Positions 1,307 through 14,040 of a DNA stretch of 27,409 bases are shown here, in pieces. Made by a program: the position numbers and the translations under genes. The stretch comes from Candidatus Peregrinibacteria bacterium. GTDB lineage: Bacteria > Patescibacteriota > Gracilibacteria > UBA1369 > UBA12463. The stretch lies in contig JAHFJT010000002.1 in NCBI GenBank assembly GCA_023245695.1, positions 1 through 27,409 of the forward strand, written 5' to 3'. Position 1 is the first letter of the stretch. Every line of letters begins with the position of its first letter. Below the pieces are notes generated by a model that did not search any database, had not been told where the DNA came from, and saw only the letters and a list, made by a program, of their open reading frames with translations.

Positions 1307-1765
1307 TTATGCGTATTTTTTCAAGGCGCGTTTGATGTCGAGGTTTTCAGCTTTTTTCTTGAGGTCGTCACGTCGGTCGTGCATCTTTTTGCCCCTGCAG
1401 ACGCCAATCAAGATCTTCACGAGATTTTTTACACCGTAGATCTCGAGAGGAATAAGGGTGATGCCTTTCTGGGACTGAAGCTGTTCTAGCTTCAAAAGCT
1501 GCTCGGTGTGGAGCAGGAGCTTGCGAACGCGGGTCGGTTCGACGGGATTGTGGTCGTATTTGTAGTTGGTGACGTAGACATTCCGGAGCCAGGCAGCTTT
1601 ATTTCCAATGTCGACGTAGCTTCCTTTGAGATTCACTTGGCCAGCTTTGACAGACTTGACCTCGCCGCCGGTGAGCTGGACTCCAGCTTCAAATTTCTCG
1701 AATATTTCGTAGAAGGCGTAGGCTTTCTTGTTTTTGGCGTAACTGGTATCGATAGGCTTGGGCAT
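1307..1765 (-). CDS. smpB: SsrA-binding protein SmpB
   Basis: NKKAY..YEI.EKFEAGVQLTGGEVKS, RKLLLH, RGKKMHDRR motifs. Start moved to MPKP (1765) because the longer ORF start precedes the conserved N-terminus. Confidence 0.95.
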   Translation of the reverse strand: MPKPIDTSYAKNKKAYAFYEIFEKFEAGVQLTGGEVKSVKAGQVNLKGSYVDIGNKAAWLRNVYVTNYKYDHNPVEPTRVRKLLLHTEQLLKLEQLQSQKGITLIPLEIYGVKNLVKILIGVCRGKKMHDRRDDLKKKAENLDIKRALKKYA

Positions 1766-1827
1766 GGGCGTAGTGTAACGGTTTGGAAGATTGGCGGCAA
1801 ATCGTGGTCGTTTGAAGCACAAACAGC

Positions 1828-1891: not shown

Positions 1892-4135
1892 ATGGCTAAG
1901 CTACGATATCTTCACATTATTGTTCCACAAGGTTCTCCTGACACTCCCAAGATTGAGGAAAAGTTTCAGGGGCTCCTTTTGAATCTGCGAAATACGGTTA
2001 TGGGTAAGCGATTTTCTTTTGAGTACTTTGGTCACGCGCAGTACGCATACTTTTTTGTGGTGGTGGAGGAGTACTTGAAGGAGACGATCGAGTCGCTCAT
2101 TTATGCGATGTATCCAGATGCTGAAATTCAAGAGACCGAGGACTACGTGAAGCAGTTCAATCCAAAGGGACAGGCGCTTGCTGGTGCCGATATTTTGCTC
2201 CATCATGCGGATGTGTATCCGATCAAAACCTACTCGGATTTTGGTGAGGATAGTATGTCGCGTTTGTTTTCGGTGATCTCAAAAATCAGTGCGAAGGATC
2301 AGGTCTGGGTGCAGATCGTGGTTGAGCCGACGGACGATTCTGCGGGCTTTTTCTTCAAGAGAAACTGGCGTCATCGCTTCGCGAACTTACACCATTTTTT
2401 CAGTATTAAGGATCGTTTTCGTGCTGGTGGTCGAAGTGCGATCAGTGAATTGCGTCACCACAAGTCTCATGAAAAGGACTCAGAGAAGCCATTCCGCGTG
2501 GGTATCCGATGTGCCTACATTGCCGAGACGCATGAAGATGCTGATCGAAAACTTGAGGCCGTGATTAATAGTTTTTACCAGTTCAACGATAGTGATATCA
2601 ATGAATTTCACGCGCATCGAACGCACGATCTCAACTCGTTTATGCGTGCATATAAGGGCCGAACGTTGGGTGAAGGATTCACCATGTCGGCCAAGGAAAT
2701 TGCGACGTTGTACCATATTCCGAATGCGGATTTTGTTCCGCATATCGTTCACGTCCAAGCCCGAAAAGCTGATCCGCCACAGGATTTGCCGCGTTCTGGT
2801 GAGCCAGATGTGAGTGGATTTGGTGTGACGAATTACCATAATAATTTCGTGCCGTTTGGTATTCGACGCGCGGATCGACGACGACATTTGTATGCGGTGG
2901 GTAAGTCTGGTTCTGGTAAGAGTAAGCTCTTGGAGCTGCTCATTATTCAGGATATCAAAGATGGAAAGGGTTTCGGTGTGCTGGATCCGCACGGTGATCT
3001 TATCGATAATATTATGCGGTACATTCCGCCGGAACGTGTGAAGGATGTGATTCTTTTTGATCCTGCCGATACGGCATTTCCGATTGCGTTCAATCCGCTG
3101 GAGTCGATCGATGACGCGTACAAGATGCAGGTGACGATTGGATTTTTGGATATTTTCAAGAAAGTGTTTGGTGACAACTGGACGTACCGACTTGAGCACG
3201 TGCTTCGATATACGACGCTCGCGCTTTTGGATAGCCCAAATACGACGATCCTCTCGATCATGAAGATGCTCACGGATAAGAATTACCGACAGAAGATTGT
3301 GTCGAGAATTCAGGACTCGGTGGTGAAGAACTTCTGGGTTTCTGAGTTTGCGGCGTGGTCGGAAAAGTTCGACTCTGAAGCCATTACACCGCTTCTCAAT
3401 AAAGTGGGTCAGCTCGTCGCGACGAATATGGTTCGAAATATTATTGGTCAGCCACAGACGAAGTTTAATCTTCGAGATGTGATGGATAACAAAAAAATCT
3501 TGCTCTTGAAGGTCTCGAAAGGTCTGCTCGGTGAGGAAAACTCGGGTTTGATCGGTTCGATGGTGATTACGAAGTTGTTCCAGGCAGCGATGAGTCGCGC
3601 GAATATTCCGGAGGAGCAGCGTGAGGATTTTTACTTTTACGTGGATGAGTTCCAGAACTTTGCGACAGATACCTTCTCGGAAATTCTTTCAGAGGCTCGA
3701 AAATATCGCTTGAATCTCACAATTGCGCATCAGTATATGGGCCAATTGAGCGAGGTCGTTCGAAAGACGGTCTTCGGTAATGTGGGTTCGATGGTGAGCT
3801 TTCGTGTGGGTGCGGATGATGCCGCGGTGCTCGAAGGTGAGTACACTCCCGTCTTCAAAGTTCGAGATATTATCAATCTCGGTGTCCGAGAATTCTATAC
3901 CAAGATGTCGGTGAATGGTGAATTGCGAGAGGCCTTTTCTGGCCGTACGCTCAGCGTTCCACCCGTTGAAAATGACCAGACGGCTGAAATTATCCGACTC
4001 TCTCGTGAGAAGTATTGCGCCCCAAAAGCTGAAGTCGAAGAGATGATGCTTCGTTGGGACGAGAGCGCTTCAGCCCCTCCAAAAGCCGAGGAGGTCGCGC
4101 AGATGGAGGAGAAGGTTGAGGAGCCGATTATTTAG
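1892..4135 (+). CDS. VirD4/TraD/TrwB-like (HerA-FtsK superfamily) coupling-protein ATPase with N-terminal extension
   Basis: Walker A GKSGSGKS, LDPHGDL, Walker B YVDEFQNF, SEARKYRLNLTIAHQY, FGNVGSMVSFRVG motifs. Confidence 0.85.
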   Translation: MAKLRYLHIIVPQGSPDTPKIEEKFQGLLLNLRNTVMGKRFSFEYFGHAQYAYFFVVVEEYLKETIESLIYAMYPDAEIQETEDYVKQFNPKGQALAGADILLHHADVYPIKTYSDFGEDSMSRLFSVISKISAKDQVWVQIVVEPTDDSAGFFFKRNWRHRFANLHHFFSIKDRFRAGGRSAISELRHHKSHEKDSEKPFRVGIRCAYIAETHEDADRKLEAVINSFYQFNDSDINEFHAHRTHDLNSFMRAYKGRTLGEGFTMSAKEIATLYHIPNADFVPHIVHVQARKADPPQDLPRSGEPDVSGFGVTNYHNNFVPFGIRRADRRRHLYAVGKSGSGKSKLLELLIIQDIKDGKGFGVLDPHGDLIDNIMRYIPPERVKDVILFDPADTAFPIAFNPLESIDDAYKMQVTIGFLDIFKKVFGDNWTYRLEHVLRYTTLALLDSPNTTILSIMKMLTDKNYRQKIVSRIQDSVVKNFWVSEFAAWSEKFDSEAITPLLNKVGQLVATNMVRNIIGQPQTKFNLRDVMDNKKILLLKVSKGLLGEENSGLIGSMVITKLFQAAMSRANIPEEQREDFYFYVDEFQNFATDTFSEILSEARKYRLNLTIAHQYMGQLSEVVRKTVFGNVGSMVSFRVGADDAAVLEGEYTPVFKVRDIINLGVREFYTKMSVNGELREAFSGRTLSVPPVENDQTAEIIRLSREKYCAPKAEVEEMMLRWDESASAPPKAEEVAQMEEKVEEPII

Positions 4136-4160: not shown

Positions 4161-5837
4161 TTAGTACACCGCCTCCAGATAACACTTCTCGCAATACACG
4201 ATTTCTGGGCGATCCGGGGCGTAGGTGGTCTCGATAGGCTTGCTGCAGTGCATGCAGGTGCGTGCGTAGAGGCGCGGAGGGTTACGGAGGGTCATGCGTT
4301 CGCCATGACGGCAATCCGGGCATTTGTGGGGGATGGGAAGGTTGATGTTGCGAAGACGATTGAGTTCTTGAGGGATGATGCGATAGTTTTTGCCACAGTT
4401 TTCGCAGGCGAGGAGTTCTTTGGTGATCGTGTCGGGAGCGTCAGCGATCCTTTCTGGAATTTGATACGTTTGTGGTTTGTAGTCTTTCTGATCTGGATCT
4501 TTCCAGTGCATGCCACGTGCGAGAGCGACGTCTTTGGTAAGCGGAACGTAGTCTTGTGCGACGGTTTCGTTGTAGCCGTAAGGTGAGTGCCACATCGGGA
4601 ACATTTGTCCCCATTCGCCGGTTTTTATCATGTGCGCGATGATCGGTGGAACGAGTTCTTCGTACTGTTCTTTGGTGTACTGTTTGTTGAAGATGCAGTA
4701 CTGCTTTTTTCTCAAGCCGCTGCAGCCAAAGAGGTTTGATGAGTTGAAACAGAACTCGCTGTAGGCGACGTTCTGGCTGTGAAATACATAGAGTGAAAAG
4801 ATGACGTTGTAGGTTTCGATCGTACCCATAACCTGATAGTTGAGCTCGGGCTTGAGGTACATATTGCTGCAGTCGATGAGGTCTTTCACATTCACGCCGA
4901 CTTTGATGTACTTACAATCCTGGCTGTCGTTGACGTCGTAGCAGTCCGTGCAGTTCTGGGTGTTCGTCAAAAAGTCACCACTGGAGTTTTCGCTGTTGAT
5001 GATGTTGGCGTACTTGTGGATGCGCTTTTTTCTGAGATCGCTAATGATTTCCTTCGCTTTTTGAACCGCGTTGTGCGAGCCAAGAAATTCCTGAACTTTT
5101 TGGGTGTAGAGCTCTTTGCTGACGGGTTCATTCATGAAGTAAAACTCTTTGTTGTTGAGGTTTGTGGAGAGGAAGCAGTTTCGGCAGCCTTTGAGATTTT
5201 CTGAGAATCCGCAGTCATACGAATTTTGGCTATACGATGTGTAGATGCAGTTGTTGCAGTTTTTGACGTAGAAACATTCGTAGAGAAGTTCCGAGTCGTA
5301 GACATAGTCGGAGTCCATGATATCTCGGGAGTTCTGGACCAATTTTCCGTAGTAGCAGTCTTCTGAATTTTCTGAGCAGTTAATGAGATGGCAGTTTTTG
5401 CAGTAGCCGGTTCCGGTCGTGTATTGGCAGTTTTCGTTACCGATCTGGATGAGATTGACGTGAGGAATTTTGGCGGAGAGTTCGTTGAACTGTTCGAAAA
5501 ATGGCCGGCTGAAGTCAAAATCCTGACCATACGAGAGGCCGTCCCAGTTTTCACTCCACCACTCTTCGTGGGTGTAAATTCTATATTTCTTACCCCACTC
5601 GGTATCTGGAGAGTAGAGAGCAATGAGCGGTTTTCCCGTCACGGCTGAGACATTGTGATACATATTCTGCTCATTACGGTGCACGGTTCGGAGTGCGAGT
5701 CGGCATGATGGACAGTTCGTCGGTGCAGGAATCTCAAATGTCTGCTCGCCAATTTTTGGTGCAATTTTCTTGAGGAACTCGAGTTCTTGATTCGTGATTT
5801 CGTAGGCGGATTGGCAGGTGGTGCAGGTGGAGGTCAT
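4161..5837 (-). CDS. Cys-rich zinc-ribbon / repeat protein of unknown function (family common in CPR), copy 1
   Basis: N-terminal CxxC and CPSCR, FDFSRPFFEQ, many NC/DC/SxxC repeats, LFGC.GL.KKQYCI.NKQY, GEWG..FP, C-terminal CxxC pairs ending YCEKCYLEAVY. Start set at MTSTC (5837) by alignment with copy 2. Confidence 0.8.
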   Translation of the reverse strand: MTSTCTTCQSAYEITNQELEFLKKIAPKIGEQTFEIPAPTNCPSCRLALRTVHRNEQNMYHNVSAVTGKPLIALYSPDTEWGKKYRIYTHEEWWSENWDGLSYGQDFDFSRPFFEQFNELSAKIPHVNLIQIGNENCQYTTGTGYCKNCHLINCSENSEDCYYGKLVQNSRDIMDSDYVYDSELLYECFYVKNCNNCIYTSYSQNSYDCGFSENLKGCRNCFLSTNLNNKEFYFMNEPVSKELYTQKVQEFLGSHNAVQKAKEIISDLRKKRIHKYANIINSENSSGDFLTNTQNCTDCYDVNDSQDCKYIKVGVNVKDLIDCSNMYLKPELNYQVMGTIETYNVIFSLYVFHSQNVAYSEFCFNSSNLFGCSGLRKKQYCIFNKQYTKEQYEELVPPIIAHMIKTGEWGQMFPMWHSPYGYNETVAQDYVPLTKDVALARGMHWKDPDQKDYKPQTYQIPERIADAPDTITKELLACENCGKNYRIIPQELNRLRNINLPIPHKCPDCRHGERMTLRNPPRLYARTCMHCSKPIETTYAPDRPEIVYCEKCYLEAVY

Positions 5838-5974
5838 GGGAGGGTGAGTAGATGTTCTAAGCATGTATTAAGGCTTTATTTTGCATAAAAGTCAACCTTT
5901 CGTTGGAAACTTTCGACATTCATTGTCTTATTATTTTGCTTTGATTAAGGCTATTTTTTACGGTATTATCTTTT

Positions 5975-6011: not shown

Positions 6012-6785
6012 ATGATCGCACAACTTCTCAAACTTGGACTCACTTCGAAAGAGGCGGCGGTGTATATGGCGCTGATGGGGCTTGGGGTGAGTTCGCCGGT
6101 GTCGACGATTGCGAAGAAGGCAAATGTGAATCGAACGACGACGTACGATATTCTTGAGATTCTCCTCGAAAAGGGTTTGGTAATTGGTCAGAAAAAGAAG
6201 TCGAGCCAGTACTATGAGGCGCTTCCTCCAGAAAAAATTGTGTCGTATTTGAAAGAGCAGAGTGAGCGATTTTCTCATTTGGCGAAAGAGGCAGAGACGA
6301 TACTTCCAGAATTGAATGCGCATTATAATGCCTCTGGTAGGCCAAAAGTGTACTTTTATGAAGGCGACGAGGGGTTGATTCGTGTCTACGAAGAGACGCT
6401 TACTTCGCATGAAGAGATCCTTGCGTATGCTTCTGATCAGGCTAATCAGGATGCCATTCCATGGTATTTCCCGCAGTACTATAAGCGCCGTGCCGCGAAG
6501 AAAATTCCAATTCGTGCGCTCTTTCCGGATACGCCAAAGGATCGTGAACGCCACTCTTTGGATGGAGATGAATTACGCCGTAGTCGATTATTGCCTAAAA
6601 ACAAGCTTGATTTCACACCTGAGATTAATATCTTCGACAACAAAATCATGATTGCCGACTGGAAAGAAAAGCTCGGAATTGTTATCGAGAGCGAGGAGAT
6701 CGTGAAGGTCTTCAAACAGACCTTTGAGCTGGCCTGGGAGGCTTCGGAGAAGTATCACCGGAAAGTGATGGGTAAGAAAGATTAG
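6012..6785 (+). CDS. TrmB-family HTH transcriptional regulator, copy 1
   Basis: N-terminal LGLT.KEA.VY.AL..LG..PVSTIAKKA.VNRTT.YDIL..L..KGLV winged HTH; C-terminal V.FYEG.EG and EINIFDNKI...W.E...I.IES..I...FKQ.FEL.W domain. Confidence 0.85.
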   Translation: MIAQLLKLGLTSKEAAVYMALMGLGVSSPVSTIAKKANVNRTTTYDILEILLEKGLVIGQKKKSSQYYEALPPEKIVSYLKEQSERFSHLAKEAETILPELNAHYNASGRPKVYFYEGDEGLIRVYEETLTSHEEILAYASDQANQDAIPWYFPQYYKRRAAKKIPIRALFPDTPKDRERHSLDGDELRRSRLLPKNKLDFTPEINIFDNKIMIADWKEKLGIVIESEEIVKVFKQTFELAWEASEKYHRKVMGKKD

Positions 6786-6918
6786 TTTGCTGATTTTAAA
6801 ATATTATTTTTTATTTTCAATCTCTTTTTTGCTTTTATATAAGCCATTTTTTCATTTGTAATCTTTTTGTAAGAGGTTTGTAATGTTCATTTGATAGTGT
6901 TTGTTTTGTCAGATGCGT

Positions 6919-6990
6919 GGGGAAGCCTCTAGGTGAGGACGACGTTCTCGACAGACGTCTAGGCGGGTTCGAATCCCGTCTTCTCCACCA
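6919..6990 (+). tRNA. Non-canonical 72-nt tRNA(-like) gene, anticodon CGA, acceptor with G3:U70 and A73, encoded CCA
   Basis: Acceptor GGGGAAG/CTTCTCC (7 bp, G3:U70) + A + CCA. D-arm CCTC-TAGGT-GAGG with no 8/9 connector. AC linker. Six-bp anticodon stem GACGTT/GACGTC around loop CTCGACA. Three-nt variable loop TAG. T-arm GCGGG-TTCGAAT-CCCGT. Confidence 0.75.
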
Positions 6991-7010
6991 ACTTCTGACA
7001 ATAGTCGACA

Positions 7011-7043
7011 AAAAGGAGAGCGATTAACTCGCTGCTCCTTTTT
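7011..7043. terminator. Bidirectional rho-independent terminator between the tRNA-like gene and Cys-rich copy 2
   Basis: AAAAGGAG-AGCGA-ttaac-TCGCT-g-CTCCTTTTT hairpin with A and T tracts on both sides, between convergent genes. Confidence 0.75.
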
Positions 7044-7050
7044 GTTATAA

Positions 7051-7066
7051 GACGTTCTCGACAGAC
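7051..7066 (+). repeat. 16-nt direct repeat of the anticodon arm of the tRNA-like gene
   Basis: GACGTTCTCGACAGAC at 7051-7066 is identical to 6941-6956. Confidence 0.9.
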
Positions 7067-7084
7067 ACCTATATTATACCACAC

Positions 7085-8761
7085 CTAATATACCGCTTCA
7101 AGATAGCACTTTTCGCAGTAGATCGTTTCAGGGCGGTCAGGGGAGTAGGTGGTGCGAATAGGAGTGCTGCAGTGTGAGCAGATTCGATCGTAGAGCGTGC
7201 GGAGGTTGCGGGATGCCCTTCGTGTCGTGTTGCGGCACTTGAAGCATCTGGAGGGGATTGGGAGGCCTTGGGCACGGTAGAACTCGAGCTCTTGAGGGAT
7301 GATTTTGAAGTTGGATTGGCACTCGACGCAGCCAAGGATTTCCTGCGTGATAGTATCTGGCACTTGAGAGATGAGATCGGGGATGACGTAGGTCTGTGGA
7401 ACCTTTTTCTTGTCTTCGTCGCGCCAGGTGAGGCCTTGGGCGAGAGCTTGTTCTCGGGTGAGAGGTTCGTAGTCCATCGCCATCGACTCGTTGTACGCAT
7501 ACGGTGAAAGCTTGGCAGGGAAGTGGTCACCCCATTCGCCGGTTTTACGCATCCAGTCGATAATTTTCGGGACAAGTTCTTCATATTCTTCCTTGGTGTA
7601 CTGCTTGTTCAAGATACAGTACTGTTTGCGTTTCATGCCAATACAGCCGAAAAGATTGGCGCTATAGTGACAGTGATTGGAGTAGAGAATGTTGCTGTTG
7701 TTGTCGAGGATGTTGATACTGAAGAGGACGTTCTGAATTTTGTAGCCGCTGTTTGAGCTCTCGTAGACGAGCTCGGCGAAGTCACCAATTTCGTCGCAGT
7801 CACGGGAGTCTTTGATGTCGGAGCCGAAGACTTGATAGAGGTATTTTCCATCACGGACGTCGTTGCAGTCGAATGATTCCTGGAGGTCTTTTGAGTTGTA
7901 GATGTAGTCGCCTGAGACGTTCTCGTTCTGGATGCCGTGCATGTATTTCTTCGGAAACTGCGTTTTGATTCGAGCAAATTCGCGTTTGTAATGTTCGACA
8001 TTCTGGCTGGAAGCGAGCTGGGCCATGAGGGTTTCGTACTCTTCTTTGGTGCCCTGGCGGTTGTAGATGAAGTACTCTTTGTGCTGCTGGTTGAAGGACA
8101 TGAATGAGTGTTTGCAACCTTCGCAGTTGTCGAGAAAGGCGCTGTCGTAGCACTGTGAAGAGTTGGTGATAAACTTGCAGTTGTAGCAGTTTTTGCAGTC
8201 GATGGCTTCGTAACAGAGCTCGGTATCGCGTGCACGATAGCAGTCCATGCAGTTGGTCGTGTGATTTGTGCTGTAGGAGTAGTAGGTGTCCCGGCAGTAG
8301 TCGGCGTCGAACATGAGGTAGCAGTTTTTGTTCTTGCCGGCGTAGTTGGTGTAGTCGCAATTTTCGTCGTAACGGAAGCCTGTGAAGAGACTTGGGCGCG
8401 GAACTTTCAAGAAAAGCTCTTGATACTGCTCAAAGAAGGGACGTGAGAAATCAAACTCCTGGCCGTACGTTGCGGCGTCCCACTCGTCACTCCACCAGAA
8501 CTCCTGATTGTACACTTTGTATGGTGAAGATGGATGTACATTGGAGAGCATGTCCTGACCGGTTTTGTCGCACTTTCTTTTGTAGAGATTGATCTGGTTG
8601 ATATGCGACTGACGTCTGATTTGTCGGCAATTCGGACAGAGGGTCGGCGGGGGAATAGGCTGCTTGATACCCCTATATTCTGGTGCGACTTTTTCGAGAA
8701 ACGCGAGGTCGTCGTCGGGAATGTCGAATGGCGTGTGGCATTTTTGGCATTGAGGATTCAT
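7085..8761 (-). CDS. Cys-rich zinc-ribbon / repeat protein of unknown function, copy 2
   Basis: Same architecture and motifs as 4161-5837 (CPNCR, FDFSRPFFEQ, NLFGCIGMKRKQYCILNKQYTKEEYEELVP, GEWG..FP, YCEKCYLEAVY). Confidence 0.8.
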   Translation of the reverse strand: MNPQCQKCHTPFDIPDDDLAFLEKVAPEYRGIKQPIPPPTLCPNCRQIRRQSHINQINLYKRKCDKTGQDMLSNVHPSSPYKVYNQEFWWSDEWDAATYGQEFDFSRPFFEQYQELFLKVPRPSLFTGFRYDENCDYTNYAGKNKNCYLMFDADYCRDTYYSYSTNHTTNCMDCYRARDTELCYEAIDCKNCYNCKFITNSSQCYDSAFLDNCEGCKHSFMSFNQQHKEYFIYNRQGTKEEYETLMAQLASSQNVEHYKREFARIKTQFPKKYMHGIQNENVSGDYIYNSKDLQESFDCNDVRDGKYLYQVFGSDIKDSRDCDEIGDFAELVYESSNSGYKIQNVLFSINILDNNSNILYSNHCHYSANLFGCIGMKRKQYCILNKQYTKEEYEELVPKIIDWMRKTGEWGDHFPAKLSPYAYNESMAMDYEPLTREQALAQGLTWRDEDKKKVPQTYVIPDLISQVPDTITQEILGCVECQSNFKIIPQELEFYRAQGLPIPSRCFKCRNTTRRASRNLRTLYDRICSHCSTPIRTTYSPDRPETIYCEKCYLEAVY

Positions 8762-9358: not shown

Positions 9359-9396
9359 ATACTTGTCAGATAACTTTGACACTAAAACAAATTTTT

Positions 9397-10152
9397 ATGC
9401 TATCAGCCAGCGATCCACTTTCACTTCTCAAACAGCTTGGGCTTACAAAGCAGGAGTCCGACGTCTTCCTTCTCTTGCTTGAGTTAGGCGCGTCACCCGT
9501 GAGTACGATTGCGCTGCGAGGGCGAATGAAGCGAACGAATCTCTATAATATTTTGGCGAAGCTTGCGGAACGTGGCTTGGTGACGGAGTTTCTGAAAGGT
9601 CGGGTGCGGTACTTCCAGGCGACGGAGCCGCACAAACTCCTCTATCTTCAGGAGCAGCAAAAGAAAAAGCTGGACCAGAATATTGCGTCACTTCGCGAGA
9701 TGTTGCCGTTATTTGAGAATATGAAAAATCCTTCACTTGATAAGCCGCGCGTGAAGTTTTATCAGGGGAGTGATGGAATCGAGACGGTGCTGACGCAGAT
9801 TCTTGCGAAGGAGTCGTTTGATTGTTACTTCAATCCGGATATTGTGTATGCGGTTTTTCCTTATGCTGTTCAGGAATTTCTCATGGAGAGTGCGAAGAAA
9901 AAACTGCATATTCGCGAGCTTGTGGTTTCGGGAAAAATGGCGAAGGAGTACGTAAGTCACATCAAAAATCCAAATCATCAGTACAAGATTCTTCCCAACG
10001 AGTTCCAGTTTGAGACGGATAACTTTATCTTTGGAAATAGCGTGGTTTTCATCTCATATCGTGAAGAGCAGATCGCGGTGATGATCGAGAGTGCGGATAT
10101 TGCCCGGACGCAGCGAATGGCGTTTGAGCTTATGTGGAAGGCCGTTCGTTGA
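9397..10152 (+). CDS. TrmB-family HTH transcriptional regulator, copy 2
   Basis: LKQLGLTKQES.VF..LLELG.SPVSTIA......RTNLYNIL..L..RGLV HTH; PRVKFYQG..G and IES.DIA.TQR.AFELMW C-terminus; paralog of 6012-6785. ATG at 9397 preferred over the TTG at 9376. Confidence 0.85.
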   Translation: MLSASDPLSLLKQLGLTKQESDVFLLLLELGASPVSTIALRGRMKRTNLYNILAKLAERGLVTEFLKGRVRYFQATEPHKLLYLQEQQKKKLDQNIASLREMLPLFENMKNPSLDKPRVKFYQGSDGIETVLTQILAKESFDCYFNPDIVYAVFPYAVQEFLMESAKKKLHIRELVVSGKMAKEYVSHIKNPNHQYKILPNEFQFETDNFIFGNSVVFISYREEQIAVMIESADIARTQRMAFELMWKAVR

Positions 10153-13089: not shown

Positions 13090-13179
13090 TGGCGGAGAGG
13101 GGGAGATTCGAACTCCCGAGAGCCTTGCGGCTCTGGCACTTTTCGAGAGTGCTCGTATCAACCACTCACGCACCTCTCC
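13090..13179 (-). tRNA. tRNA-Ser(CGA), canonical long variable arm
   Basis: Reverse complement: GGAGAGG/CCTCTCC acceptor, G73, CCA; D-loop GAGTGG; anticodon stem GCACT/AGTGC with loop CT-CGA-AA; variable arm AGAGCC-GCAA-GGCTCT; T-loop TTCGAAT. Confidence 0.95.
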
Positions 13180-13228: not shown

Positions 13229-13582
13229 CTACCGGTGAAGGGCAATCTTGGCTTTAAGCTGATTTTTTCCGGGAGCTTTGCCCTTAGAGGATGTGTACGG
13301 GGTGACCTCTTTTTCGATTCGGTCTTTATCGTTTTTCGCTTCTTCTATGTCGTAATCTGCCTGTAGATTAATCCAAAATTCCGCGGACATATTGAAGTAT
13401 TTTCCAAGACGAATTGCGGTGTCTGGCGTTATGGCACGTTTCCCTCGTACAATTTCGGAAATTCTTATAGGTGATACGCTTGTGTCTTTCGCTAGGCGAT
13501 ACATTGATATTTTCATCGGAATAAGAAACTCTTCGTTAAGAATTTTTCCTGGGTGAATATTGGGAATTTTCTTTGGTCGCAT
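13229..13582 (-). CDS. higA: HigA-family addiction-module antitoxin (HTH)
   Basis: IHPGKILNEEFLIPM.IS.YRLAK, RISEIVRGKRAITPDTAIRLGKYF..SAEFWINLQ..YD motifs. Confidence 0.92.
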   Translation of the reverse strand: MRPKKIPNIHPGKILNEEFLIPMKISMYRLAKDTSVSPIRISEIVRGKRAITPDTAIRLGKYFNMSAEFWINLQADYDIEEAKNDKDRIEKEVTPYTSSKGKAPGKNQLKAKIALHR

Positions 13583-13585
13583 GGT

Positions 13586-13870
13586 TTATGGGTGATAGTC
13601 TATAATTTCTACGTTGTATGCATTGTTATTGTGCCATTCGAAGCATATTCGCCACTGTTTGTTGATGCGTATGCTGTACTGCTCTTTTCGATTTCCCTTT
13701 AATTTTTCTAAGTGATTTGATGCTGGTAGCCTTAGTTCATTCATGGTGGGTGCAGCATTGAGTATTCGAAGCTTCAGTCGTACCCTTTCCTGAATTAATG
13801 GCGGTATTTTTTCTGACCACTCCGCGTTAAATATTTTTTCTGCTTCTTTGGATTTGAAATTTACAATCAT
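13586..13870 (-). CDS. higB: HigB/RelE-family toxin
   Basis: MIVNFKSKEAEKIF...P.SNHLEKLKGNRKEQYSIRINKQWRICFEW...AYNVEIIDYH; toxin upstream of antitoxin. Start at 13870. Confidence 0.92.
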   Translation of the reverse strand: MIVNFKSKEAEKIFNAEWSEKIPPLIQERVRLKLRILNAAPTMNELRLPASNHLEKLKGNRKEQYSIRINKQWRICFEWHNNNAYNVEIIDYHP

Positions 13871-13885
13871 TGTCTCACTGGTTAT

Positions 13886-13923
13886 ATAGTATCGCGTCTC
13901 GATAGTATCGTCAAGCGATACTA
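13886..13923 (-). promoter_or_regulatory. higBA promoter overlapped by two tandem inverted-repeat operators
   Basis: Minus strand TTGACG (13909-13914), 17 nt, TACTAT (13886-13891). Palindromes TAGTATCG-N5-CGATAGTA (13887-13907) and TAGTATCG-N5-CGATACTA (13903-13923). Confidence 0.8.
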
Positions 13924-14040
13924 GTGTGCTTTTTGTCTGTCTCCATTCATGATACTTGTCGGTTCTAACAGGCGATTTACAAATTTTTGACATTTTTCTG
14001 ACAAATGAGGCCTTTTACCCCTCCAAAGCTGGCCCGATAT

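Follow-up and report, generated by a model that had tools for sequence, protein, structure and literature searches.

A probable alanine-acceptor tRNA mimic and its predicted antisense partner RNA in Peregrinibacteria

Introduction

What purpose does a transfer RNA (tRNA) gene serve when its anticodon says serine and its acceptor stem says alanine? The question is posed by a 72-nt cloverleaf, here called RNA1, in a 27,409-nt stretch of DNA from Candidatus Peregrinibacteria bacterium (GenBank assembly GCA_023245695.1, contig JAHFJT010000002.1, positions 1 to 27,409; hereafter the window), which is contig C20 of genome G000, a 1.04-Mb assembly that is 86% complete. ARAGORN calls the gene at 6919-6990 (+) as tRNA-Ser(cga). 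An earlier reading made from the letters alone (the sequence-only reading) had offered four roles for it: an alanine-charged reader of UCG codons, the substrate of a dedicated synthetase, a tRNA domain like that of transfer-messenger RNA (tmRNA), or a non-translational RNA acting as aminoacyl donor or regulator. The comparative analysis presented here points in the last of these directions, and a specific form of it is likely: RNA1 would be an alanine-acceptor tRNA mimic that is gated by a private antisense RNA, RNA2, encoded immediately downstream and on the opposite strand. The anatomy put forward by the sequence-only reading has stood and its fourth role leads in the right direction, its other three roles are not supported, and two features escaped it, namely that RNA1 belongs to a family and that a repeat at 7051-7066 would mark the start of an antisense RNA.

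Results

RNA1 is one member of a structured, covarying family

The acceptor stem of RNA1, read from the sequence, is GGGGAAG/CTTCTCC, with a G3:U70 pair, A73 and an encoded CCA end. No nucleotide separates the acceptor and D stems, the D arm is CCTC-TAGGT-GAGG, the arm that would carry the anticodon (hereafter the arm) has a 6-bp stem, GACGTT/GACGTC, with a U.G closing pair and the loop CTCGACA, and a 3-nt variable region, TAG, leads into the T arm, GCGGG-TTCGAAT-CCCGT. ARAGORN and this reading together bear out the cloverleaf anatomy that had been proposed from the letters. Since all 32 ARAGORN-called tRNA genes of the genome encode a CCA end, the presence of one in RNA1 is simply the usual style for this genome. 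The gene sits in an AT-rich gap and, as had also been noted, is followed by a terminator, which a terminator scan finds to read on both strands. By itself the fold is unremarkable (z -1.5 for the 72 nt, z -3.2 with flanks), so the case for more-than-chance structure comes from comparison.

No Rfam 15 family exists for the RNA1/RNA2 module, and an Rfam scan of the window produced zero matches reaching the gathering score. The best sub-threshold match was to tmRNA (30 bits), covering only the acceptor and T arm of RNA1, followed by permuted tmRNA (17 bits) and otherwise by chance matches. The missing tRNA match is uninformative on tRNA-likeness, because the same tool gave no general tRNA-model match even for the normal long-arm tRNA-Ser(cga) of 90 nt, for which its best match was tRNA-Sec (37.7 bits). 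ARAGORN places this normal gene at 13090-13179 (-), exactly where the sequence-only reading had seen it.

Two paralogs of RNA1 were found in the genome by a search with the tmRNA model (C72:11527-11597, minus strand, and C44:3514-3583, plus strand); ARAGORN recognises the window copy and not these two. Both have the acceptor GGGG...CTCC-A-CC(A) with G3:U70 and a similar T arm, while the rest of the stem is compensatorily changed. Further copies in related genomes were recovered by a pattern search together with two covariance models, R1 and R2, on which RNA1 itself scores 85.4 and 77 bits, respectively. On the family model the two tRNA-Ala genes of the genome score 51.1 and 42.6 bits and its three family members 56-77 bits. 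With a census threshold set just above that tRNA-Ala score (51 bits), R2 was positive in 61/151 genomes of the order (Peribacteria/Peregrinibacteria metagenome-assembled genomes), at 1-9 matches per genome and with approximately 150 members, about 13 of the listed matches being 75-78 nt long and probably tRNA-Ala; the census thresholds lie near tRNA-Ala scores. The RNA is present in eight families of the order (for example 12/15 in f1, 15/22 in f7 and 10/11 in f19), and no match was obtained in eleven other families among the genomes searched there. In a sample of 151 genomes from the phylum, just one genome outside the order matched (R1, E <= 1e-11). One member, L078 (G004:C40:2851-2948), carries an insertion of approximately 26 nt within its T loop and still scores 59-63 bits.

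Covariation was assessed in 42 model-aligned sequences, comprising 41 family members and one ordinary tRNA. Paired cells amount to 92.7% compared with 63.9% in shuffles, both sides have changed in 20 of 23 pairs, and the covariation score is 0.733 against 0.186 for shuffled alignments (0/500 reach it) and 0.10-0.17 with slid partners; these shuffle statistics overstate independence, since related genomes were compared in an alignment that had been fitted to the model. Covariation is strong in all four helices, and 100% of acceptor-stem cells are paired while positions 4-7 vary freely. The search for homologs has thus yielded a family with conserved structure and compensatory changes across the order, in agreement with the earlier argument that intact pairing speaks against simple decay. 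Judged in silico by this comparison, RNA1 is a conserved, structured, alanine-marked tRNA mimic, one member of a family in ultra-small groundwater bacteria.

The acceptor half is constant and the loop triplet varies

Column counts were taken over 45 family members. G3:U70, G2-C71, A73 and the D-loop GG are each present in all 45, which upholds the alanine identity marks G3:U70 and A73 that had been picked out in the single copy, and G1-C72 occurs in 43, the remaining two carrying U1-A72. The CCA end is encoded in 41 members, the linker between acceptor and D stems is without any nucleotide in 44, and the T loop reads TTCRANY in all members counted. The family therefore bears the marks of a substrate for alanyl-tRNA synthetase (AlaRS), as far as sequence marks go. 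Arm stems are 6-8 bp long, D loops measure 3-6 nt and the variable region is 2-3 nt in aligned members.

The loop has a pattern of its own. U33 is found in 40/45 members, a purine at position 35 in every member, C37 in 40 and A38 in 44; position 37 is a pyrimidine in 43 members and a purine in only 2, and position 32 is a pyrimidine in just 22. The triplet at nt 34-36 takes 11 forms among the 45 (TGA in 15, CGA and TGT in 7 each, CGT in 4, and others). U33 and the purine at 35 would fit the YUNR U-turn motif, which is common to anticodon loops and to the target loops of antisense RNAs (PMC7430163). Furthermore, three genomes of the genus and one of another family share a syntenic locus flanked by recJ and a second DHH/DHHA1 gene, and its members (L020, L036, L047 and L063) differ in the arm and carry the triplets TAT, CGT and TGA. 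Such differences between syntenic copies indicate that there is no codon-specific selection on the triplet and that it is the alanine-acceptor half that is selected. The hallmarks of a decoding tRNA, i.e. a linker of nt 8-9, a 5-bp anticodon stem, a purine at 37 and an anticodon conserved between orthologs, are not those of this family.

A co-varying antisense RNA gene is predicted beside RNA1

A 16-nt repeat links the arm of RNA1 (6941-6956) to a site beyond its 3' end (7051-7066), and the exact 16-mer occurs nowhere else in the 1.04-Mb genome. The predicted minus-strand promoter at 7101-7073 places the predicted start of RNA2 at approximately 7066, the last base of the repeat, and the predicted transcript would open with an antisense copy of the arm (Table 1). 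The same design recurs across the family. At 31/41 loci, 9 nt or more of the resident arm is repeated exactly (median 12, maximum 18), and the copy sits 47-67 nt downstream of the CCA end in nearly all of them; controls gave 1/41 upstream and 2/41 in reverse complement, and 31 ordinary tRNAs of the genome carry at most 8 nt of such a copy. Identity between the copies is complete (32/32 loci) at nt 33-37, stands at 27-31/32 at nt 26-32 and is down to background by nt 22 and nt 43. A minus-strand -10-like hexamer, mostly TATAAT or TACAAT, was found beside the copy in 32/32 loci within the interval searched, with TG in 22, and the distance separating the -10 from the antisense block is 5-7 nt at 27/32 loci, 19 of which have exactly 6 nt.

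Pairing between the two RNAs is predicted to be specific to each locus. The RNA1-RNA2 duplex in the window has a predicted energy of -30.7 kcal/mol, compared with -10 to -15.6 kcal/mol with non-cognate family members, and the mean values are -26.3 kcal/mol for cognate and -11.3 kcal/mol for non-cognate pairs, same-genome pairs included. The first G of predicted RNA2 would pair with C37, which would account for the odd pyrimidine at that position. What is expected of an antisense target was thus found in silico, namely a YUNR loop and a co-varying complementary 5' tail that has its own predicted promoter and terminator. At the level of sequence, the unit adjoining RNA1 is co-evolving and bears the signals of a small antisense RNA gene.

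The partner gene was seen in three arrangements: convergent, divergent upstream and tandem. At L049, L050 and L066 the predicted RNA2 is divergent, being placed upstream of RNA1, and has a separate terminator. L073 and L076 come from a genome that does not belong to the order; there the predicted RNA2 follows RNA1 downstream on the same strand, equipped with a promoter and a terminator of its own, and the DNA repeat is consequently inverted. The predicted RNA2 of L066 is antisense to a shortened RNA1 copy that includes the acceptor strands and CCA end, and similar shortened copies are held by L051, L060, L061 and L065; a partner promoter is evident for L051 and for the C72 paralog. These loci suggest that RNA2 genes arose from partial RNA1 duplicates read in antisense. 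The shortened copies, which lie downstream or upstream of RNA1, at all five loci keep the acceptor strands, the 5' strand and loop of the arm and the CCA, and the T arm is gone. The C72 paralog has a longer convergent partner unit, in which 10 nt match, in antisense, the 3' acceptor strand and CCA of the paralog, and the C44 paralog ends in ACA, not ACCA, and has a partner of the canonical arm type.

Six further 10-mer matches to the repeat are present in the genome. They include a repeated palindrome, TCTGTCAATTTT(T)CTCGACAGA, in two homologous intergenic regions (C74 near 217 and C131 near 1269), the C131 copy having 14 nt in common with the RNA1 arm. This palindrome resembles an operator within a repeated gene region and is probably unrelated to RNA2.

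Table 1. Coordinates of RNA1, predicted RNA2 and their putative signals in the window
Feature	Position	Strand	Basis and remarks
Predicted extended -10 of RNA1 (TGaTAGTGT)	6892..6900	+	Consensus match only; start predicted near 6906-6908
Leader strand of leader-trailer helix, TTGTCAGA	6906..6913	+	Fold with flanks
RNA1, 72-nt alanine-type tRNA-like RNA	6919..6990	+	ARAGORN, fold, model scores, covariation, column counts
Trailer strand of leader-trailer helix, TCTGACAA	6994..7001	+	Fold with flanks; starts 3 nt past CCA
Intrinsic terminator common to the convergent RNA1/RNA2 genes (A-run, hairpin, T-run)	7010..7045	both	Terminator scan, core 7019-7033
Predicted RNA2, ~57 nt (16-nt antisense 5' tail, then terminator hairpin)	7010..7066	-	Inferred from promoter, terminator and repeat
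Second copy of RNA1 nt 23-38, GACGTTCTCGACAGAC (predicted RNA2 5' end; complementary to arm loop and 5' strand)	7051..7066	-	16-mer search
RNA2 promoter: TTGAAG (7101-7096), 17-nt spacer, TG, TATAAT (7078-7073)	7073..7101	-	Promoter scan, 10/12 matches

Promoter and leader-trailer helix of RNA1

The predicted promoter of RNA1 also has counterparts, in that a -10-like hexamer lies at a comparable distance at 37/41 loci, with TG in 19 of those. The RNA1 -10 hexamers look further from consensus than the RNA2 ones. A leader-trailer helix of at least 8 bp can form at 33/41 loci from sequences that are very different between loci; the mismatched-locus control is high (41%) and the support for this helix is consequently moderate. 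With the same moderate confidence, the CCA end of the primary transcript would be hidden inside this helix.

Pseudoknot pairing of the loop with leader or trailer was also considered; it reaches at least 6 bp in 47% over all loci against 42% in mismatched controls and is not claimed. It is striking at a few loci, with the leader in L018, L020, L021 and L031 and with the trailer in L022.

Neighbouring genes and genome inventory

The neighbours of the RNA family vary between loci. The three copies in the genome adjoin, by locus, genes for a TrmB-type regulator and a Cys-rich protein, purH, and a glyoxalase-family gene. In the window, a Cys-rich protein of approximately 560 amino acids and a TrmB-type regulator form a duplicated module (4161-5864 (-), 6012-6785 (+), 7085-8761 (-) and 9376-10152 (+)), and at least one of the two genes flanks the RNA module at 7/41 loci, among them loci in three other families of the order. 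The Cys-rich neighbour protein returned nothing above the curated cut-offs in Pfam or NCBIfam, and the Atlas gives only unnamed clusters of the Candidate Phyla Radiation (CPR). The -35 element of the RNA2 promoter overlaps the final codons of the 558-amino-acid open reading frame (ORF). A second promoter-like site at 6793-6820 (-) (TTGAAA, 16-nt spacer, TAAAAT) is aimed into the 3' end of the TrmB gene and may be a chance match.

Among genes whose products handle tRNA-like molecules, smpB lies at 1307-1822 (-) in the window, where the sequence-only reading had located it, and a true ssrA with a tag ORF was found at C138:6660-7069 (99.5 bits on the tmRNA model). Two FemAB genes are present in the genome, which has a Fem homolog on contig C160. 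A FemAB gene directly adjoins a family member in G006 (L041, C2: ORF 1-888, RNA 975-1046) and in G011 (C50:119-945); as a rough estimate, approximately 0.2 such cases would be expected by chance in 41 loci. AlaRS is present in all 8 same-genus genomes, and the MprF C-domain, RqcH/NFACT and TROVE/Rsr were not found in this 86%-complete genome.

Elsewhere in the window, 1892-4135 (+) encodes a 747-amino-acid protein with weak VirD4/TraG-type coupling-protein domains (T4SS-DNA_transf, TraG-D_C), and a HigB-like toxin (PF05015) with a helix-turn-helix antitoxin (13229-13993, minus strand) lies directly beside the normal tRNA-Ser(CGA).

Discussion

The data allow a two-RNA module to be proposed, and it is likely that RNA1 is an alanine-acceptor tRNA mimic gated by its private antisense RNA2. 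RNA1 would be transcribed from its own promoter as a precursor whose leader pairs with the trailer across the CCA end and so keeps it uncharged. Cleavage by RNase P and trimming of the 3' end would yield the 72-nt RNA1, which AlaRS could then charge, as it appears to retain all that AlaRS needs (G3:U70, A73, G1-C72, G2-C71 and CCA) together with a normal T arm and elbow. Its compact core carries a 6-8-bp arm that would be capped by a YUNR U-turn loop rather than by a decoding anticodon loop, and the CGA triplet is probably a variant of a pairing loop and not a serine anticodon in use. RNA2 is predicted to start at a near-consensus convergent promoter and to run from approximately 7066 to 7010 on the minus strand; its first base, G, would meet C37 and pairing would continue through nt 26-37, here nt 23-38, opening the arm. 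Pairing from a 5' tail to a loop has precedents in the action of Sok on hok mRNA and in RNA-IN/RNA-OUT of IS10. Both YUNR loops and convergent gene pairs are well established in antisense systems (PMC7430163). By opening the arm, RNA2 would sequester RNA1 or mark it for decay and thereby set the level of free RNA1, which most likely would act via its alanine-acceptor/T-arm half on AlaRS, EF-Tu or an aminoacyl-tRNA-using transferase.

Several points weigh against this proposal. The promoters and start sites are consensus matches only, and transcription of both RNAs, like the processing and charging of RNA1, is a prediction. DNA runs of one groundwater study contain the stretch; the contigs of three metatranscriptomes from the same study hold nothing of it, although contigs cannot show absence. 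Approximately one quarter of loci are without a canonical partner; at some of these the partner is antisense to the acceptor strands, and L067 yielded no partner. The kinship of the genomes, through which the shuffle statistics come out too favourable, tells in the same direction, as does the lack of AlaRS in this 86%-complete assembly. Finally, the window copy passes as a tRNA with ARAGORN, and tRNA-Pyl tolerates an anticodon stem of 6 bp, so that by its geometry RNA1 might still decode.

Decoding is the role that the sequence-only reading had listed first. RNA1 would then be a working alanine tRNA that reads UCG, its paralogs reading other codons, to bring about programmed serine-to-alanine mistranslation with RNA2 as the off-switch. 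Besides its acceptance by ARAGORN, RNA1 has a 7-nt loop with U33 and the full alanine identity set, and non-canonical G3:U70 tRNAs do insert alanine in E. coli (PMC5389517). Programmed mistranslation is nevertheless distinctly improbable, given the pyrimidine at 37 in all but two of the 45 members, the stems of 6-8 bp, the 11 triplets that differ even at the same recJ locus, the purine that always occupies position 35, as a YUNR turn requires, and the presence of a normal tRNA-Ser(CGA). A dedicated synthetase receives no support either, for no PylS was found (26 bits on the model against a cut-off of 178) and G3:U70 with A73 points to ordinary AlaRS. Were RNA1 a tmRNA-like tRNA domain for SmpB-dependent ribosome rescue without a tag, the GGGG...CTCCACCA acceptor, the resemblance of its T arm to that of ssrA and the presence of smpB in the window would be explained, but its 30 bits on the tmRNA model lie below both the gathering score of 47 and the 36.4 bits of the genome's ordinary tRNA-Ala(GGC), a full ssrA with its tag ORF exists on C138, and smpB does not neighbour family members at other loci. 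SmpB sits on tmRNA at the very place where RNA1 has its D stem and long arm, and such a rescue role is very improbable. A decaying tRNA-Ala pseudogene or integrase att remnant, with the 16-nt repeat as a recombination scar, would account for the direct repeat of part of a tRNA-like gene, for the coupling-protein gene of type IV secretion system kind nearby and for the truncated acceptor and CCA copies at some loci. It is almost certainly not the explanation: pairing is intact with compensatory changes across the order, the repeat always adjoins a promoter, with constant spacing, and also occurs inverted, or upstream with its own terminator, and no integrase was present among the genes checked around RNA1.

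Two further alternatives concern what a charged RNA1 might do. It could carry alanine, in a non-ribosomal role, to the FemX-type transferases of peptidoglycan bridges, its supply tuned by RNA2, for which the non-proteinogenic tRNA-Gly species of Staphylococcus offer the comparison. Conservation limited to the half with acceptor, T arm and elbow would suit a carrier, as would the two FemAB genes of the genome and the FemAB genes that adjoin family members in G006 and G011. On the other hand, FemAB occurs in 144/151 genomes of the order and the RNA family in approximately 61, so presence does not track, although a gene that is almost universal makes this presence/absence test uninformative on the cell-wall idea; moreover, most loci have unrelated neighbours, and a carrier gives no reason for multiple paralogs each with a private antisense RNA. 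The idea is unlikely. The pair could instead be an RNA-only poison and antidote resembling a type I or type VIII toxin-antitoxin system, in which RNA1 is harmful to translation when free and charged, and is neutralised by RNA2: alanylated RNA1 would enter ribosomes, misinsert alanine or tie up AlaRS or EF-Tu until RNA2 covers its loop, and each paralog would be a separate, non-cross-reacting pair. Convergent genes with a common terminator, a YUNR target loop that meets a 5' antisense tail, RNA2 -10 hexamers closer to consensus than those of RNA1, and several copies per genome with predicted partners orthogonal within it would all be in keeping with such a system, and these features resemble bsrG/SR4 (PMC7430163). 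Toxicity is conjecture, however, and the recJ copies are syntenic across families, resembling stable residents and not come-and-go elements, which leaves the poison/antidote reading quite unlikely.

The proposed mimic with its antisense partner resembles several known systems in part. With canonical tRNA-Ala and the AlaRS minihelix rule, RNA1 shares G1-C72, G2-C71, G3:U70, A73 and the encoded CCA, and the family shares the 7/5 acceptor/T arrangement, the TTCRANY T loop and the D-loop GG; it departs from them in the absence of nt 8-9, the 3-6-nt D loop, the 6-8-bp arm, C37 and the variable triplet, as well as in its leader-trailer helix and private antisense gene. Allo-tRNAs and other irregular G3:U70 tRNAs likewise combine a tRNA shape and AlaRS marks with varied anticodons (Mukai et al. 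2017, PMC5389517; reviewed in PMC7609411), and some irregular tRNAs are thought to be non-translating or regulatory and are linked to toxin-antitoxin loci (PMC5389517; PMC7609411). Allo-tRNAs are defined by an 8/4 or 9/3 acceptor/T branch and a long variable arm (PMC5389517), whereas the RNA1 family is 7/5 with a 2-3-nt variable region and so falls outside the definition; nor has a partner antisense RNA been described for allo-tRNAs. A putative Clostridia tRNA-CCG with G3:U70, by which CGG is read as alanine (bioRxiv 10.64898/2026.04.02.715157), similarly places a non-alanine anticodon on a G3:U70, G1-C72 body. That tRNA is canonical, has no partner RNA and takes over from the usual CGG reader where the code has changed across a clade; in the present case the normal tRNA-Ser(CGA) is retained alongside a variable triplet and a predicted partner RNA.

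On the antisense side, the likeness is to hok/Sok, IS10 RNA-IN/RNA-OUT and bsrG/SR4 (PMC7430163), which have in common with the proposed module a YUNR loop, 5'-end pairing that zips into one strand of a stem, convergent genes with a common terminator, a stronger-looking antisense promoter and orthogonal partners. Unlike the targets in those pairs, RNA1 is not an mRNA and has no peptide ORF: in contrast to what a type I toxin would demand, the sole ORF in the predicted RNA1 transcript has 7 codons and is absent from L019 (window and two loci compared). The predicted RNA2 is also mostly of the trans type, derived from a repeat and not from overlap, and would keep working in divergent and tandem layouts. 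The tRNA-like domain of tmRNA shares alanine identity, the GGGG start, the CTCCACCA end and a similar T arm with RNA1, which lacks an mRNA-like domain and pseudoknots, has a full D stem and arm and scores below the Rfam threshold. The short or absent acceptor-D linker, small D loop, 6-bp stem and 3-nt variable region of the window copy recall tRNA-Pyl and mammalian mitochondrial tRNA-Ser(UCN), to which the sequence-only reading had likened it. Kinship with tRNA-Pyl is not upheld, as RNA1 keeps G18-G19, the canonical TTCGAAT T loop and the AlaRS marks, its triplet is CGA rather than the CUA anticodon, and PylS was not found. Bacterial Y RNA (YrlA) differs from RNA1 in that the acceptor end of the latter is open with CCA and not closed, and no TROVE match was obtained in the 86%-complete genome.

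The literature searched on tRNA-like RNAs in CPR bacteria, Peribacteria or Peregrinibacteria, or on such RNAs with antisense partners, yielded no description of this module. Members of the family will be listed by tRNA finders as extra tRNA-Ser, Thr, Leu and so on, and such calls could cause codon reassignment or mistranslation to be falsely inferred in CPR genomes. The module might serve to donate alanine, to modulate translation or as an addiction module made of RNA only. Provided that both RNAs are produced and interact as predicted, bacteria among the smallest known would maintain multiple copies of a chargeable look-alike of tRNA whose "anticodon" would have been repurposed as the docking site for a dedicated antisense RNA, and the control of a tRNA-shaped molecule would here take a form not found in the literature searched.

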